From NCBI GenBank assembly GCA_036960175.1, contig JBALWH010000007.1, forward strand, positions 23,462-87,461: a stretch of DNA of 64,000 bases, given 5' to 3'. A program made the translations under genes and the position numbers. The notes under the pieces are model-generated. The model did no database searches. It saw nothing but the letters and a program-made list of their open reading frames with translations, and was not told the DNA's origin. Below, in pieces: positions 8,246 through 43,536 of the stretch (within the stretch, counting starts at the first letter, position 1; the number at the start of each line of letters is the position of its first letter). This DNA comes from Motiliproteus sp. (GTDB lineage: Bacteria > Pseudomonadota > Gammaproteobacteria > Pseudomonadales > Balneatricaceae).

Positions 8246-10888
8246 CTATTCTGACTGGTCTTTGGCTCCTTGGCTGAGCATGTGCTGAACTAACGCTTTC
8301 AGTTTTGCAGGGCGCACAGGTTTATTCATCATGTTGTAACCCAGCGCGCGCACTTCTTGTTTTAACTCATTGCTATAATTTGCTGTGATCATTAGAACCG
8401 GAGCGTCTAGGCGTAACTCCTGGCGAATCCGCTGGGCGGCTTCTAAGCCGGTTTTTCCGTTATCCAGGTGGTAATCGGCGATCAGCATATCGATTCCCGC
8501 TTTCAGTTCTGGCTGCTGTGCTACTTCCTCGTAGGAGGTGGCGGTGAAGACTATGCACTTCCAACTTGTTAAAAGTGTTTCCATGGCTTCACAAATACTG
8601 AGTTCGTTGTCGACTACTAGTATGCGTTTTCCTGCAAAGCTATAGTGGGCCGAGCTGTCATAGCTGTTGGATGGCAGCGGTTGTGTTCTGGGTAAGGTGC
8701 CGTAAGGGATTTGCACGGAGAAGCAAGATCCGCGTCCGGGTGCTGAGCGCACGGATATCTTGCAGCTGAGGATTTTTGCCATTTTTTCAACGATCGCCAG
8801 ACCAAGTCCCAGGCCTTTGTCGCGGGCGGAGTTGTCATCGTGAATACGATTAAACTCCTGGAAAATTTCCTCCAGTTTGTCCTCGGGAATACCGATACCG
8901 GTGTCACAGACTTCGATAGCCAGTACGCCTGCCTGTCTGCGGCACCCTAGCATGACCTTGCCGGCAGGGGTGTAGCGTATGGCGTTGCTGAGGAAGTTCC
9001 TAAGGATGCGGGCCAGTAGCTGTGAATCGGATGCGATCACTGCTGATGAGGAGACGAACTCAAACTCCAGTCCAGCATCGTTAGCAAGTGTTTGGAATTC
9101 GTTCGCTAGGTTGTCGAGCAGGTCGCCGGCGTTAAAGGCAGTGATATCTGGTTTTACTGCACCGGCATCCAGTTTGGATATATCTACCAGAGCGGCCAGT
9201 AGCGATTCCACGTCTTCCAGTGAGAAATTGAGAGAGTTGACCAGTCGTCGGGTGCGATCACAGAGGTCATGTTCCATCAGCGAGGCGGCGAATAGCCGTG
9301 CTGCGTTCATCGGTTGCAATAGGTCGTGGCTAGCAGCGGCCAGGAATTTGGTTTTGCTGGTGTTGGCGTGCTCCGCTTCTTTGGTGGCCTCTCGCAGTCG
9401 CGCTTCGATCTTTCGGCGTTCCTGGATATCTTCCAGCATCTGCAGATTGAGTGTCGTCAGCTCAGCGGTCCGCTCGGTGACTCGTTGCTCCATGTTCTGA
9501 TAGGCATTGCGGAGTTCTTCGGCAGTAATACGTTGTTCGGTTATATCCTGAATCAGCACATAGAAGCCCTCTACCTGCTGATTGTCACCGAACTGTGGAA
9601 CATAGGACTTCAGTACATAACGTTTTTTTCCGTCCGGTGTGGGTTCATCAATCTCAAAACTGACTGCCTCCCCTTTCAAGGCGCGTTTGACATAAGGGCG
9701 CAGGCGTTTCAGTTGTTTTTCCGGCAGCACATCCACCAGCTTATGTTCCAATACCTTCTTGCGATCGAGCTGATACCAAGTCTCGTAGGCGCGGTTGGTA
9801 AACTTGAAGGTCAGGTCACTATCGACATAGGCGATAAGGGCCGGTACGGCATCGGTGATCAGGCGAATTCTATGCTCGCTATCCGCTAGTGCTTTGGCAG
9901 ACCGGCTGCGTTCGGTGATGTCGGTGTAGGTGTTAACATACTGGCCATTGGGCATGGGGTGTGTCTTGATTTCAAGGACTCGGCCGTTGGACAGCTGCTG
10001 CTCCATTTCTCTGCTACGTTTTCCGTGCTTATTACTGCTGACGGGTTTTAGATCTTCTACCTCGGTGGCAGCCATCAGCTTGCTGATGCTCAGTCCCGAT
10101 GTGACGTTTTTGCGATCAAGCCCCGCAATTTCGATAAAGCGTTCGTTCCAAGTTTCGAGCTGTTGCTGGTCATTTACCAGAATGACGCCTTGGGACAGGT
10201 TGTCGAGGGTATTTTGTAGAATGGTGGATTTGTTCGCCAGCGCTTTTTCTCGCACTGCGCGCTCATTCTCCATCAGCGTGGTGATGTCTTTGTACAGCAC
10301 CACCATGCCGCCATCGCCGGTATAGCGCTCGCTAATCTGCAGCCAGTTGCCATTGGCTAAACGGTATACTTTACCGTCACTCTGCAGGGACTTGTTCTTC
10401 CAGTGTTGCTGACCATCAGCTCCTTGAAAATGGTAGTCGATCAGCTTCATCCGCTGGGATAATTCCTTGATCTCCCGCTGATGAATTCCAGGTTCGATTT
10501 TGACGCCAGAATTGCGCCAGAACTCGCTGAATTTGGTGTTACACAGCAGCATGCGCTGGTCTTTGTCATAAAGAACAAAGGCATCGGAAATACTTTCGAT
10601 GGCTTCTATTAAATATTGGTGTGCGGTCTGAGCGACATTGTTAGCATGTTTCAGGGCCTGGTTGCTGTGTTTAAGATCGGCCAGTGCAGCGTTCAGGGCG
10701 GCGGTACGTTCGTGGACCTGCTCGGCCAGAAATACCGCGTGTTCAAAGTTTCCGTAGGGGCCGTACTTATCGTTGGATCCGGCTTCTACCCGCTCTATCA
10801 GTGCCTGATTTATTTTCTTAAGCTTGCTGTTTTCCTGCTCGAGCTGTGCAAGCTGGGCTTTCAGGATTTTGGTCTCTGATTCAGCCAA
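8246..10888 (-). CDS. nahK: Multi-PAS hybrid sensor histidine kinase, NahK-like
   Basis: Several PAS domains, AASHDLLQPM H-box, receiver domain; TTG at 10888 with GGAGG RBS overlaps the nosP stop. Confidence 0.8.
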   Translation of the reverse strand: MAESETKILKAQLAQLEQENSKLKKINQALIERVEAGSNDKYGPYGNFEHAVFLAEQVHERTAALNAALADLKHSNQALKHANNVAQTAHQYLIEAIESISDAFVLYDKDQRMLLCNTKFSEFWRNSGVKIEPGIHQREIKELSQRMKLIDYHFQGADGQQHWKNKSLQSDGKVYRLANGNWLQISERYTGDGGMVVLYKDITTLMENERAVREKALANKSTILQNTLDNLSQGVILVNDQQQLETWNERFIEIAGLDRKNVTSGLSISKLMAATEVEDLKPVSSNKHGKRSREMEQQLSNGRVLEIKTHPMPNGQYVNTYTDITERSRSAKALADSEHRIRLITDAVPALIAYVDSDLTFKFTNRAYETWYQLDRKKVLEHKLVDVLPEKQLKRLRPYVKRALKGEAVSFEIDEPTPDGKKRYVLKSYVPQFGDNQQVEGFYVLIQDITEQRITAEELRNAYQNMEQRVTERTAELTTLNLQMLEDIQERRKIEARLREATKEAEHANTSKTKFLAAASHDLLQPMNAARLFAASLMEHDLCDRTRRLVNSLNFSLEDVESLLAALVDISKLDAGAVKPDITAFNAGDLLDNLANEFQTLANDAGLEFEFVSSSAVIASDSQLLARILRNFLSNAIRYTPAGKVMLGCRRQAGVLAIEVCDTGIGIPEDKLEEIFQEFNRIHDDNSARDKGLGLGLAIVEKMAKILSCKISVRSAPGRGSCFSVQIPYGTLPRTQPLPSNSYDSSAHYSFAGKRILVVDNELSICEAMETLLTSWKCIVFTATSYEEVAQQPELKAGIDMLIADYHLDNGKTGLEAAQRIRQELRLDAPVLMITANYSNELKQEVRALGYNMMNKPVRPAKLKALVQHMLSQGAKDQSE

Positions 10889-38979: not shown

Positions 38980-39666
38980 TCAGTCCTCAAAGCGATAGCC
39001 AATGCCATGCACGGTCTGAATTATTTCAGGCACTCTTGGATCTAGCTCAAGGGTTTTACGCAGCTTCGATATATGTTGATCGAGGCTGCGACTGTTGGCC
39101 AGATAGTTGCGACCCCAGCAATGATTAAACAGCGACTCGCGATCCACCACTTTGCCGCAATTGTCATGCAGCAGGCGCAGTATTTTCATATCCCGAAGAC
39201 TGAGTTCGTAAACTGTGGAGCCGCGCTGGGCCCTTAACTGCTCGGGCATGACCTGCAGGTCTTTCATCACGAAGGCGTGGTCATTTTCGCTGTTGGCCTG
39301 AATCTGCAAACAACGGCGGGTCACGGCGCGAATACGGGCGATGACTTCGCGGCTGCCGAAAGGTTTTTTGATGTAGTCGTCGGCACCTAATTCAAGGCCC
39401 AGCACCTGATCTATCTCTTCGGATTTGGCGGTAATGAAAATGACCGGTACGGTTTGATTCTGCTGGCGTATCTGCCGGCAGATACTGTAACCATCCTGCT
39501 TCGGCATCATGATATCCAAAAGCACCGCATCGGGCTGAAACTGCTGATAGAGCTGCCAGGCCTGATCGCCATCGGCGGCTTCAATACAGTCATAGCCTTC
39601 CGCTTCCAACAGTGCTTTCAGCCCTTGGCGGATATGCAGATCGTCTTCGGCAATGAGTAACTTCAT
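38980..39666 (-). CDS. OmpR-family response regulator
   Basis: LLDIMMP receiver, GADDYIKKPF, wHTH with TVHGIGYRF; ATGA overlap with the kinase. Confidence 0.95.
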   Translation of the reverse strand: MKLLIAEDDLHIRQGLKALLEAEGYDCIEAADGDQAWQLYQQFQPDAVLLDIMMPKQDGYSICRQIRQQNQTVPVIFITAKSEEIDQVLGLELGADDYIKKPFGSREVIARIRAVTRRCLQIQANSENDHAFVMKDLQVMPEQLRAQRGSTVYELSLRDMKILRLLHDNCGKVVDRESLFNHCWGRNYLANSRSLDQHISKLRKTLELDPRVPEIIQTVHGIGYRFED

Positions 39667-41462
39667 GGAAGATCTCCGCGTGGGATAGCGTCTTCGGGCG
39701 TGTTAATTTGCAACAAAAAACTAGCGCCAGAGAGGGGGTGATCTGCAGCAGTATCTGTCAGGGTTTCCAGCATCAGATCACCATCTTGGGCCCGGGCCAG
39801 ATCTCTTGCCAGACCAAGGCCAATACCGGTGCCGCTGACGCCATCGGTGAGCTTGTTACTGATTCGGTAGAAGGGCGTGAAAATAGCCTCGGATTCGCCA
39901 GGTGCAATACCGGGCCCGTAATCTCTGATTCTGATATAGCTGCTCTGCGCCTCCTGCCAGCTGCTGATATCGATAAAGCGGCCATCCGCAGCGTATTTTT
40001 CACAGTTACTGATTAGGTTGTTAAGAATTTGCTCCAGCGCCTGACAGTCAAACAGGCGTATTTCGTTGGCGTTGCCGTCAAAGCGGATCTGCAAATTGTG
40101 ATCATTAAGGGCCGGGGTGAAGTTCTCGATAATCTGCTCAATGCAGCGGTCTATCTGGTCTTGCTTGGGGCTGATCTTTAAACCGCCACGTTTGATGCGG
40201 GAGAAGCTCAGGACGTTTTCGATCAGCCGGGATAGACGCTGGCTTTCGCTGGCAATAACCCGTAGATAGCGTTGTGGTACGGGGTCTTCTTCTTCGGTTG
40301 GCAGGTGCTGCTCCAGCATCTCTGCATAAAGTCGGACGTTGGTCAGCGGTGTTTTCAACTCATGGGACACCTGATTAACAAAATTCACCCGCTGCTCGGC
40401 ATTTCTTATTTCTCGATTGTGTTCCCGGTACAGCAGCCAGGCTAGGGCAGAAAGGCCGCTGGTAAGCAAAATTAGCCAGCTGACCAGTGACATCCAGCCA
40501 CTGTCTCCGGCTTGCAGCGCCGGTGCATAATAAGCCAGACGCCAGCTGCCGATAGGGTGGCTGAGGGGCAGGACTCTTTGTGGCTGGCTATTGGCCTGGG
40601 GGCGGTATTCGCCCCAGGCATAGACGACCTCATCACGGTCATTGATCAGGCGTATTTCTGCCCGTCCGAGAGAGCTGCTTTGACTGTCACCCTCTGGCAA
40701 CCGGTTTAGCAGGTCTGACACTAGGCGGGGGCCATTCAGTACAAAGCCGATAACGTTATCCAGGTCATCTCGCCACCAGAATATATGCTGCAGACCGGTA
40801 TCGGCGTACCAGGCGATCCAGCCATGCGGGTTGTCAGCCAGAATGTCAGTCTTTTGGGTCGGTGACTCTAAGCGTTCTGGCTGTGCCTGTTGGGATAGTT
40901 GACCACTGTATAAGGTTGAACTGAGAACGGAGTCTTCATATTGATCAGTGGCTGCTGAGGACGATTGCAGCTGGCTGCGTTGCCCGGTTCTTTTTATTGG
41001 CTGGTTAATCGGATCCAGCTCTGGGCTGTTAAATAGCTCTGGCGTTGCGAATAGTGCTTTGGTGCGTTCGACAAAAGCCTGCTCCAGGCGATTGCTTTGC
41101 TGGTTTGAGGGTGGGAATTGTCGCTCCCCCTGCGGGGTCAGGACAAACAGTTGGGATAGCCAGGGTGACTGTTTAATGTATTGTCGCAGGGGTTCTGGAG
41201 AGTAGGTGCCATCACGCTGTTGCTGCAGGGTTCTGGCGTCAGGGATCAGGCGCCTTTGTAGCGCGAGGAAGTGGTCCTGAAGCAGCTGGTCGACAGTCTG
41301 CAGGCGGTGTTCGATCAGGTTGCTGAACTGGTGTTCCAGTAATTGCTGCTGGTTCTGTTGATGACGGACTCCGAACCAGGCCAGCAGCAATACTGGCAAG
41401 AGGATAATGACGGCTAGCAGGATCGGAGTTCGTTTTTTCAGAGTCATGGTCAGCGACAGCAT
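39663..41462 (-). CDS. Membrane sensor histidine kinase
   Basis: Two TMs around a large periplasmic domain, VSHELKTPL H-box, DYGPGI, GTGIGL. Confidence 0.93.
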   Translation of the reverse strand: MLSLTMTLKKRTPILLAVIILLPVLLLAWFGVRHQQNQQQLLEHQFSNLIEHRLQTVDQLLQDHFLALQRRLIPDARTLQQQRDGTYSPEPLRQYIKQSPWLSQLFVLTPQGERQFPPSNQQSNRLEQAFVERTKALFATPELFNSPELDPINQPIKRTGQRSQLQSSSAATDQYEDSVLSSTLYSGQLSQQAQPERLESPTQKTDILADNPHGWIAWYADTGLQHIFWWRDDLDNVIGFVLNGPRLVSDLLNRLPEGDSQSSSLGRAEIRLINDRDEVVYAWGEYRPQANSQPQRVLPLSHPIGSWRLAYYAPALQAGDSGWMSLVSWLILLTSGLSALAWLLYREHNREIRNAEQRVNFVNQVSHELKTPLTNVRLYAEMLEQHLPTEEEDPVPQRYLRVIASESQRLSRLIENVLSFSRIKRGGLKISPKQDQIDRCIEQIIENFTPALNDHNLQIRFDGNANEIRLFDCQALEQILNNLISNCEKYAADGRFIDISSWQEAQSSYIRIRDYGPGIAPGESEAIFTPFYRISNKLTDGVSGTGIGLGLARDLARAQDGDLMLETLTDTAADHPLSGASFLLQINTPEDAIPRGDLP

Positions 41463-41498
41463 CCTGTGTATGGGTTTACCGAGCCACGGCTCAGGCTA

Positions 41499-42851
41499 TC
41501 AGTATTTCTGTTGGGTTGCGCGTTTATACTGACGGGCTTTGAGTTCCTTGCGTTTTTTGTTCCACTGCTGCTCATCGCCCAGCTCATCAGCATCTTTCAA
41601 GGCTTCGGCCTTCTGTTCCATCAGCTTTGGAGAGCTTAATGCCGCGCCCTGTGAACCCAGGTAAGTCGCGCTTTGTTTCAGGATTGTTTGGGCACCCTGA
41701 ATATCACCCTGATCCCTTTTTTCCAGGGCCTGACGACCATATTCATTGGCGACCTGTTCAACGGCTGACTCATAGGCGTTACTGTCGATGGCGGCTTCAA
41801 CTTCTTCTTTAGACTGGCTGAAAGAGGCGCTGACTCGCTCCCGTACTTGCTGGTTCTTGCGGGTGTAGAGGTTGTAATAGTCAATATCGATAGTGGCCAG
41901 TTCCAGGTCACTGCCTGCCTGTTGGGCCGGTACTTCGACCTCAAGGATGACGAATTTTTCCTGCTCGCTATAGAGCTGGTTGAGGCGAGCGCGAACACGG
42001 CCGCCAATGATATCGCTTTCTCGTCCAAGCAAGCGAATGGGTTTGATGCCCTTGCCGCAGTTGATCTCGATGGTGACACCCTGGGCGACCACGGATAACA
42101 CGTCGCCAAACTCATATTGGAATATGCTGGCCAGATCCTCGGCATTTTCTACAAAGGCATGGTTGCCATCGCTGAAACCTGCCAAGCGTGTCATCAGGTC
42201 TTCGTTATATCCCAAGCCGAGGCCGATAGTGGTGACGCTCATACCTTCTTTGGCCAGTGATGCACCCAGTTGTCCTAGCTCTCTGGGAGACTGTGGGCCA
42301 ACGTTAGCAAGGCCATCCGATAGCAGAATAACGCGATTAACCTTGTTTTGATCGAGGAACTTACGCAGTTCCTGAGCCCCTTTGCTGACACCGGCAAAAA
42401 GAGCGGTGTTGCCGTTGGCACGAATATGGCGGATGGCGTTGTAGATGCTTGGTTTATCGCTGACCTTAGTGGCGGGCACCACAACCTTGACCCGAGAGTC
42501 ATAACTGATCACCGAGACGATGTCTCTGTTGTCGAGGCGACGAATGGCCATTATCGCGGCTTCACGGGCCTGTTCAATTTTATCGCCAGCCATAGACCCA
42601 GATTTATCCAGGACGATGGCGATGTTGGCGGGTATGCGCTCCTGCTTGTTATGTTGCTTGAAGCCTTCCAAGGATATCTTGATAAACGCCTTGTGGACTT
42701 TGTCGGCGGCCATGACCGGGGTGGCCAGATTGATATTTAGATCAATCTCATTGGGCACTTTCAGGCTGGCGTTGGCGCTGCAGGCCAGCAGTGCCAGCAG
42801 GGCGCCGCCTAGCAGTTGCTTCATTGGCTGAGACACGTTGGGTGCGTTCAT
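41499..42851 (-). CDS. Exported vWA-domain protein
   Basis: Signal peptide; intact MIDAS (IVLDKSGS, GNTAL, LLSDG); AAGGA RBS. Confidence 0.9.
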   Translation of the reverse strand: MNAPNVSQPMKQLLGGALLALLACSANASLKVPNEIDLNINLATPVMAADKVHKAFIKISLEGFKQHNKQERIPANIAIVLDKSGSMAGDKIEQAREAAIMAIRRLDNRDIVSVISYDSRVKVVVPATKVSDKPSIYNAIRHIRANGNTALFAGVSKGAQELRKFLDQNKVNRVILLSDGLANVGPQSPRELGQLGASLAKEGMSVTTIGLGLGYNEDLMTRLAGFSDGNHAFVENAEDLASIFQYEFGDVLSVVAQGVTIEINCGKGIKPIRLLGRESDIIGGRVRARLNQLYSEQEKFVILEVEVPAQQAGSDLELATIDIDYYNLYTRKNQQVRERVSASFSQSKEEVEAAIDSNAYESAVEQVANEYGRQALEKRDQGDIQGAQTILKQSATYLGSQGAALSSPKLMEQKAEALKDADELGDEQQWNKKRKELKARQYKRATQQKY

Positions 42852-42975
42852 GATGATATTCCTTGTTCAGTGAGTATAGGGGAGCGGGGTGTTTCCGAAA
42901 ACCGGTCTTTCCCCAGGCTTCTGTATGTCACTGTATGCCAGTACTAAGGTTCAAAGGTCAGATGAGTTTTTGGGT

Positions 42976-42994
42976 TTTGTAAGGAGTTTGTAAG
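42976..42994 (-). promoter_or_regulatory. 11-bp-period direct repeat upstream of the vWA-HK-RR operon
   Basis: Minus strand CTTACAAA-CTC-CTTACAAA, the geometry of OmpR/PhoB-family operators. Confidence 0.55.
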
Positions 42995-43089: not shown

Positions 43090-43536
43090 TTGATGAAAAC
43101 CCTATATGCTCTGCTCGCTGCAACCTTGTTGCTGAATACTTCGACCCTGATGGCTGCGGATGTCTCTGCTGAAATTCTGGCGCAAGGATCAGCCAGCTGG
43201 GATAGCGGTGGTTTTCAGTATCCTGCCGGGAAACCGCAGCTGACGGTGCAGAAAATCAGTATTAAGGCCGGGTCTGAGCCGCTGGAGCTAAGCATTCATT
43301 GCCATACAATCCCCCTGGCTGCCTACGTCGTCAGCGGCAGCGTCAAGGTAGTCAAGCTAAGCGGGGAAGAGAAGACTTTTCAGGCCGGGGAAGGTTTGAT
43401 AGAGGTGGTGAACAGCTGGCACAAAGGCGTGTTTGTGGATGATACCGAGCTGATCGTTTTTTATGCCGGCGCTGAGGGTACGCCACTCTCATTTAAGCAA
43501 GGTGATACTAAACCGACTTCGGCCAGTTGCCGATAA
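43090..43536 (+). CDS. Exported cupin-domain protein
   Basis: Signal peptide, HCH cupin motif, EVVNSWHKG, LIVFYAG. Confidence 0.8.
   Translation: MMKTLYALLAATLLLNTSTLMAADVSAEILAQGSASWDSGGFQYPAGKPQLTVQKISIKAGSEPLELSIHCHTIPLAAYVVSGSVKVVKLSGEEKTFQAGEGLIEVVNSWHKGVFVDDTELIVFYAGAEGTPLSFKQGDTKPTSASCR

Follow-up and report, generated by a model that had tools for sequence, protein, structure and literature searches.

What does an exported protein with a von Willebrand factor A (vWA) domain do at the head of an operon that also encodes a two-component system? This question is raised by a locus in a 64,000-nucleotide stretch of DNA from Motiliproteus sp. (assembly GCA_036960175.1, contig JBALWH010000007.1, positions 23,462 to 87,461), hereafter called the window. 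Three open reading frames (ORFs) on the minus strand together fill positions 38980-42851 of the window. They encode, in order of transcription, an exported 450-aa vWA protein (41499-42851), a 599-aa sensor histidine kinase (39663-41462), and a 228-aa response regulator of the OmpR/PhoB family (38980-39666). An earlier note on this DNA had described the same order and strand, and proposed that the vWA protein is a metal-dependent co-sensor within an autoregulated loop. In this study, we found that the three genes very probably constitute a dedicated autoregulated cassette, whose cognate regulator acts at TTACA repeats ahead of the vWA gene. As regards the vWA protein itself, a feedback role is plausible, and other readings are better supported than that of a pure co-sensor. 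Taken as a whole, we tentatively favor, with a confidence slightly short of even, a mobile and positively autoregulated cassette in which the vWA protein is both the main product and a titratable feedback partner of the kinase.

The finer points of the gene arrangement were also borne out. The stop codon of the kinase gene and the start codon of the regulator gene share an ATGA, and the gap between the vWA and kinase genes is 36 nt when the longest kinase ORF is taken. Because orthologous kinases begin with MKxRTP, the true kinase start may be Met6 (ATG at 41447), in which case the gap would be 51 nt.

Is this arrangement peculiar to the window? A synteny scan with one genome per species returned 74 loci with vWA relatives, including 43 with full-length orthologues (40-86% identity). 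In all of these 43 loci, which come from other genomes, the kinase gene is next on the same strand. The regulator gene then follows in 41 of them (one truncated by the contig end) and the remaining two contigs end within the kinase gene; that is, the triad singled out by the earlier note is complete wherever the contig continues. None of the genes flanking the cassette in the window is common to more than three loci, and when all ORFs across all loci were clustered, the common neighbors were the three genes of the cassette alone. The carriers are mainly marine gammaproteobacteria of the Nitrincolaceae/Oceanospirillales type (Motiliproteus, Amphritea, Marinobacterium, Neptuniibacter, and Pontibacterium), and further carriers include Hahellaceae, symbiont metagenome-assembled genomes (MAGs), one Myxococcota MAG, and one Oligoflexia MAG. 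The cassette is single-copy and its distribution is patchy, with 14 of the 301 genomes of the order and 9 of its 135 genera carrying it. Since only these three genes are kept together across such a patchy, single-copy distribution, the cassette behaves, on comparative genomic grounds, as a conserved, self-contained, and horizontally mobile three-gene module.

How, then, is the cassette controlled? Upstream of the vWA gene, the minus strand carries the direct repeat TTACA-N6-TTACA (TTACAAACTCCTTACA) at 42978-42993. In the sequence of the repeat, gcTTACAaactccTTACAaaa, TTACA occurs at 42993-42989 and again at 42982-42978, with the 11-bp period that had been noticed before. The exact repeat is found in 39 of 44 orthologous promoters, the one in the window included. 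Near-exact variants occur in Hahellaceae and Oleiphilaceae loci, and in the Oligoflexia locus the direct repeat is TGACA-N6-TGACA. We propose that the cognate OmpR-type regulator binds 42978-42993 as a dimer and with high affinity.

An information profile was built from 36 non-redundant promoters aligned on the repeat. Information content is about zero through position -2, and conservation begins exactly with the first T of the repeat. Values reach 1.5-1.8 bits per position over tTTACAAATCTTTTACAa and are then intermediate to +40. There is no conservation from +42 to +55, and information is high again at a -10-like element, cnTAgAGTg, at +58 to +64. That an unconserved stretch separates conserved blocks argues for selection on specific elements, and not merely for recent common descent of the cassette edge. 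In the window, the -10-like box reads TACAGT (42930-42935, minus strand; family consensus TAgAGTg) and its distance to the repeat start is fixed at 58 nt, which places the predicted transcription start near 42923. Two weaker half-sites continue the 11-bp register at 42956-42971 on the same strand and overlap the -35 region. The third half-site is AAAAA (42971-42967) and the fourth is TGACC (42960-42956), which falls within a conserved TCTGAC at 42962-42957. Across the aligned promoters, the A at +24 is present in 33 of 36 and TCTGAC (+31 to +36) in 29 to 34 of 36 depending on the position, and an A-C core recurs at +2/3, +13/14, +24/25, and +35/36. Four half-sites in an 11-bp register that end over the -35 region represent the geometry expected of activators of the PhoB/OmpR type. 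The half-site itself also resembles the boxes of WalR and Bacillus PhoP, TGTWAH or TT(A/T/C)ACA. A sigma-70 scan of the spacer found no canonical -35/-10 pair, which fits with activator dependence. Sigma-E and sigma-54 readings of TCTGAC were considered and discarded, as the consensus lacks a matching partner element at the right distance.

Does the same site control genes elsewhere? The exact TTACA-N6-TTACA pattern occurs 4 times in the 4.83-Mb genome of the strain against about 10 occurrences expected by composition, that is, not above chance. Hence, the significance of the repeat comes from its conservation across genomes and not from its abundance in this one. When a 39-nt promoter matrix was run on the same genome, it returned one strong match, the promoter of the cassette itself, at 41.8 bits (next best, 16.7). 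The consensus 16-mer TTACAAATCTTTTACA was found exactly once each in 11 of 81 family genomes, and its reversed control gave 0 matches. All 11 matches are correctly oriented and lie about 180-220 nt ahead of the mature start of the vWA orthologue. Of the 11 family genomes with the consensus site, 7 gave the cassette promoter as the single match to a relaxed pattern (TTACA-N4-T-N-TTACA). In the strain's own genome and in 18 cassette-bearing genomes, we also searched for a wider regulon by exact pattern, relaxed pattern, and matrix. The extra matches were about as numerous as those of the reversed controls, and recurring extra sites of the relaxed pattern were limited to within-genus repeats. Judged by these searches, the only conserved high-affinity target found is the promoter of the operon, so the vWA protein would be at least the main regulated product.

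These data bear directly on the identity of the regulator that uses the site. One could argue that chance accounts for both the adjacency and the repeat, or that the repeat is the site of some other regulator, for instance a CpxR-like one. The lack of over-representation in the genome agrees with this, as does a similar box outside the window. On contig C31 (approximately 9105-10465), TTTAC-N6-TTTAC (TTTACAGAAACTTTACA) lies between the gene for an OmpR-type regulator and a divergent LTXXQ (CpxP/Spy-like) gene. This locus is probably a Cpx-like system, and its box indicates that a short half-site by itself is not specific to the vWA cassette. Nevertheless, the site of the cassette occurs once per genome and travels with the cassette into unrelated contexts and phyla, and the only transcription factor that travels along with it is the regulator of the cassette. 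We therefore regard a fortuitous or foreign site as very improbable. The earlier claim that the cassette has its own operator for autoregulation is in line with a repeat that is conserved, fixed in position relative to the -10-like box, and found to travel only with the cassette.

To judge by their domains and residues, the kinase and the regulator are a bona fide classical two-component system of the HisKA/OmpR type. In the kinase, Pfam recognizes HisKA (E 1e-18 at residues 358-425) and HATPase_c (E 8e-15 at 474-582) and no other domain, and H367 as well as the N and G boxes are invariant in 31 kinase orthologues. The regulator matches Response_reg (E 3e-32) and Trans_reg_C (E 9e-22), with D51 within the motif LLDIMMP and a winged-helix output domain. 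All its matches to NCBIfam equivalogs are below the cut-off, the best being YycF/WalR, RpaB, and PhoB. From locus to locus, its recognition helix, SR(S/T)LDQHISKLRK, hardly varies. Variation in helix and operator gives one matched pair only, in the Oligoflexia locus, where the TGACA repeat comes with H-to-T and K-to-T changes in the helix; another locus pairs a Thr helix with TTACA.

The sensor part of the kinase is more unusual. Two transmembrane (TM) helices, TM1 at about residues 12-31 and TM2 at about 321-345, enclose a periplasmic alpha/beta sensor (32-320), and the roughly 290 residues between them agree well with the 300 or so that had been claimed. In the AlphaFold model, a long helix leads from TM1 into an alpha/beta lobe (89-144), which is followed by a disordered insert of variable length (149-208) and a beta-rich lobe (213-312). 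TM2 then runs directly into the DHp helix, which makes the modeled kinase one without a HAMP domain. A Pfam search with residues 32-322 of the kinase gave no match, and the Foldseek matches to the kinase model were dominated by the cytoplasmic core, with none informative on the sensor. The secondary-structure pattern of the modeled sensor looks PDC/Cache-like. Invariant periplasmic residues of the kinase include P117, E127, W215, G284, and P303.

What kind of protein precedes this pair? The vWA protein begins with a signal peptide of about 28 aa and two N-terminal strand segments. The vWA domain spans 76-251 and is followed by a beta-sandwich at 254-345 and a four-helix bundle at 348-445; the basic tail ends in QQKY. 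Pfam detects VWA at residues 76-244 (E 2.4e-19) and finds no match in the isolated C-terminal half. Database names are all generic ("VWA domain-containing protein", "Ca-activated chloride channel family protein"). The MIDAS (the site of metal ion-dependent adhesion) is intact, as had been reported for this protein: D82-x-S84-x-S86, T149, and D179 are all present, and they are invariant in an alignment of 33 orthologues. We considered whether the LLAC sequence of the window protein could be a lipobox and rejected this reading, since the Cys is not conserved and the orthologues have AxA signal peptidase I sites. Because signal peptides of the signal peptidase I type are found in all orthologues and the lipobox Cys is not kept, the vWA protein is predicted to be a soluble periplasmic protein. 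Its vWA domain is the best conserved part of the cassette, with a mean identity of 80%; the kinase core reaches 55% and the sensor lobes 36-45%. The tail (residues 430-450) forms a conserved basic helix, WNKKRKELKxRQYKRATQQxY, and its C-terminal Tyr is invariant in every orthologue, including those without a kinase. The tail may serve to dock the protein to a partner, a PDZ-type domain, or the envelope.

The AlphaFold model of the vWA protein is a confident one, with a mean predicted local distance difference test score (pLDDT) of 86 and a predicted template modeling score (pTM) of 0.79. Its best Foldseek matches are ArnB (8s05), Caci_2163 (4fx5), and vWA2 (5a8j), with E-values from 9e-26 to 2e-21, a probability of 1.0, and target TM-scores (template modeling scores) of 0.67-0.76; Sec23/24 and ITIH1 come next. 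Among solved chains, those closest in sequence are ArnB, ITIH4, and alpha2-delta subunits. According to the model, the protein has the tripartite fold of ArnB and vWA2, in which the vWA domain is inserted in a beta-sandwich with the N-terminal strands and accompanied by a four-helix bundle, with the MIDAS intact. ArnB and vWA2 of Sulfolobus acidocaldarius and Caci_2163 share this fold and an intact MIDAS with the cassette protein at a sequence identity of 15-19%, and the tripartite architecture of vWA2 and ArnB has been described (PMC6509490). ArnB is a signaling adaptor tied to protein kinases. It acts in the cytoplasm, together with an FHA protein and Ser/Thr kinases, whereas the vWA protein of the cassette is exported and tied to a histidine kinase.

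With these components in hand, we can outline how the cassette may work. With its unclassified alpha/beta sensor, the kinase would detect a cue in the periplasm or envelope, and it would phosphorylate D51 of the regulator. The phosphorylated regulator would then bind the repeats as tandem dimers, from about -70 to -33, and activate the operon, whose main product would be the exported vWA protein, probably in amounts that exceed those of the kinase and the regulator. In the least secure step, the vWA protein would report back to the kinase, either by binding its sensor or by being titrated off by its own MIDAS ligand, as in CpxP-CpxA and DbfQ-DbfS. We rank a feedback partner first because of the vWA-first order within one operon, the conserved residues of the sensor, and the precedents of CpxP and DbfQ.

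These precedents deserve a closer comparison. Like the cassette, CpxP-CpxA/CpxR of Escherichia coli and DbfQ-DbfS/DbfR of Vibrio cholerae combine an exported protein with an OmpR-type two-component system that is encoded with it and controls it. CpxP and DbfQ bind the periplasmic sensor of their kinases and set the balance between kinase and phosphatase activity. For DbfQ, a periplasmic protein encoded with DbfRS, binding to the kinase has been documented (PMC12714742). Unlike the 450-aa tripartite MIDAS protein described here, CpxP and DbfQ are small or small helical proteins, and neither is related to it in sequence or fold. Moreover, the Cpx and Dbf regulons are broad, whereas the conserved site of the cassette is at its own promoter only, and kinase binding by the vWA protein is our working model.

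Several observations weigh against this account. At the promoter, 20-21 nt separate the -35-like TGAC from the -10-like box; sigma-70 promoters do not usually have such a spacing, and the promoter assignment is therefore provisional. In the genome, an 18-nt matrix gives nearly equal scores at other places, so weak or degenerate sites of the regulator are possible. In the kinase, the sensor evolves much faster than the vWA domain. Finally, there are full-length vWA orthologues (39-47% identity) with intact MIDAS, hallmark motifs, and C-terminal tail that have no kinase or regulator gene next to them, which indicates that the vWA protein does not need this kinase to function.

The kinase-less orthologues are worth describing. 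In two genomes of other classes and in one metagenome contig, the vWA orthologue has a QQAY tail and lies directly after the gene for a protein of about 1,100 aa with multiple TM helices (L140:4664-9390 in genome G697, L141:4387-9410 in genome G557, and L142:2628-7326). This large protein, which has no Pfam match, combines 4-5 TM helices at the N-terminus with a long coiled-coil and a further TM helix, and may be an alternative membrane partner of the vWA family. A profile comparison between it and the sensor of the cassette kinase found no relation in the periplasmic parts. Among 17 metagenome relatives, 3 have a kinase and a regulator downstream, 2 have a divergent regulator, and the others have neither or lie on contigs that are too short. 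In one of the two loci with a divergent regulator, a 571-aa exported protein precedes the vWA gene.

If the vWA protein can do without the kinase, it could be output and nothing else. The kinase would then sense its cue alone, and the vWA protein would be an induced effector that binds or sequesters a periplasmic or surface target via its MIDAS, with no contact to the kinase. The operator unique to the promoter of the cassette and the vWA orthologues in loci without the kinase pair both speak for such a role, and so does the spacer between the vWA and kinase genes. In the window, this spacer (41463-41498, minus strand) contains a weak hairpin, GAGCC-GTG-GCTC, and many orthologous loci have a strong one at the equivalent place. 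Strong hairpins, several of them with T-runs, lie between the two genes in about 14 of 31 loci. GC-rich hairpins were noted in the spacers of L003, L004, L010, L016, L019, L027, L030, L033, L036, L038, and L043. Such hairpins may act as partial terminators or attenuators and so determine the ratio of vWA protein to kinase. Given how frequent they are after the vWA gene, the vWA protein is probably made in excess over the kinase and the regulator.

A further argument for an output role comes from the closest analogue that has been studied, the dedicated sortase operon of Shewanella oneidensis (SO2192-SO2196; TIGR03784-03788). Here too, an OmpR-type two-component system, PghK/PghR, is tied to an exported vWA protein. 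PghKR induces the adjacent operon encoding the sortase and a VIT-vWA protein more than 17-fold, yet deletion of this operon leaves PghKR-dependent ampicillin resistance unchanged (bioRxiv 10.1101/2023.05.05.539549). The two systems differ in that the cassette kinase lacks the CBM9 of PghK in its sensor, and in that the Pgh genes form divergent operons whereas the cassette is a single one. We examined whether the cassette could itself be a member of the dedicated sortase systems and discarded this possibility. The best NCBIfam match of the vWA protein is indeed to the sortase-target family TIGR03788, at 68.7 bits against a cut-off of 551.65, and the regulator scores 131 bits against TIGR03787, with a cut-off of 335.7. 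Both scores are far below the cut-off, the vWA protein has no VIT domain and no LPXTG/TM sorting signal (it ends in QQKY), and there is no conserved sortase or PdsO nearby.

On the other hand, the vWA gene is always first in the transcription unit of the kinase, and this order is fixed across phyla. The sensor has invariant residues of a surface type (E127, W215, W229, W283, and W307), which would be unusual for a small-molecule sensor that is so divergent, and many systems with such a layout use feedback, CpxP and DbfQ among them. Altogether, we consider a role as output alone to be rather unlikely, and keep the feedback partner as the preferred reading.

Could the vWA protein instead be an obligate co-receptor, as the earlier note proposed? 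It would then be a ligand- or metal-binding sensor subunit, and the real regulon would lie elsewhere. LuxP-LuxQ and TorT-TorS offer known precedents, since in these systems, as in the cassette, the gene for a periplasmic protein lies beside that of the sensor kinase and its product could deliver the state of a ligand. The strict synteny, the intact and invariant MIDAS, and the HAMP-less kinase with its large unclassified sensor are all compatible with such an arrangement. However, LuxP and TorT have the periplasmic-binding-protein fold, work with hybrid kinases, and are not the main autoregulated output, whereas the partner in the cassette has a vWA fold. In addition, no second conserved high-affinity site was found in the 18 cassette-bearing genomes, vWA orthologues exist without the kinase, and the terminator-like hairpins speak against 1:1 co-production. 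The unique operator, the kinase-less orthologues, the hairpins, and the analogy with PghKR thus all tell against a co-receptor that is obligate and paired with a regulon elsewhere, a reading that we hold to be distinctly improbable. A feedback role of the vWA protein is still compatible with these same observations.

If the vWA protein does report back to the kinase, how might the two proteins touch? The invariant periplasmic Glu127 of the kinase is a candidate for the residue that would complete the metal site of the MIDAS. The metal would then clamp an acidic residue of the sensor, resulting in an integrin-style, metal-bridged complex of receptor and kinase that is made or broken by an external ligand or a change in cations. 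We think it unlikely that this picture holds. The pairing of vWA and Cache domains in the alpha2-delta subunits of calcium channels provides a loose parallel to the proposed complex of MIDAS and sensor. If it is true, a bacterial histidine kinase would for the first time be seen to have a vWA/MIDAS co-receptor, and the cassette would be a widespread, self-amplifying, three-component sensor of the envelope.

In either case, the cassette is of interest. Two-component systems with periplasmic accessory proteins have been described, none of which is known to use a vWA/MIDAS protein. A full-text literature search for the triad of vWA protein, kinase, and regulator found no paper, and no functional name for the cassette turned up. 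A role in anti-phage defense was also considered and set aside, as PADLOC gave no match for the vWA protein and only weak, generic domain matches for the kinase and the regulator. The cassette is unusually well defined, with three genes, one operator with a consensus sharp enough to locate the cassette in a genome, and one obvious output. Contact between the MIDAS and the kinase would constitute a new way to gate a histidine kinase; if there is no such contact, the cassette would be a compact inducible module for an exported protein of the adhesion type. The logic of the circuit is ordinary, and the system is clean and testable.

Other gene arrangements around vWA relatives came up in the same survey. 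Loci L063 (5080-9945) and L069 of Planctomycetia contain an analogous and unrelated cassette, composed of a VIT-vWA protein (758 aa), an OmpR-type regulator, and a kinase whose periplasmic region spans about 350 aa. When the kinase of this cassette was compared with that of the window by profile, only the core aligned, and the periplasmic parts are unrelated. A second context for the family is found in three further loci (L145:52-4094, L148:124-3543, and L149:127-3168), where the gene before that of the vWA relative encodes an exported protein of 400-570 aa that Pfam does not recognize. Two of these three loci have the gene for a 139-aa lipoprotein 3' of the vWA gene, and L145 has a divergent OmpR-type regulator upstream.

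Within the window, the neighbor on the promoter side is a divergent plus-strand gene at 43090-43536, which encodes an exported, cupin-like protein of 148 aa. It shares a 238-bp spacer with the cassette promoter, and its start is about 100 nt from the operator. The cupin-like gene is not kept beside the cassette elsewhere (1 locus), so its co-regulation with the cassette, if any, would be lineage-specific.

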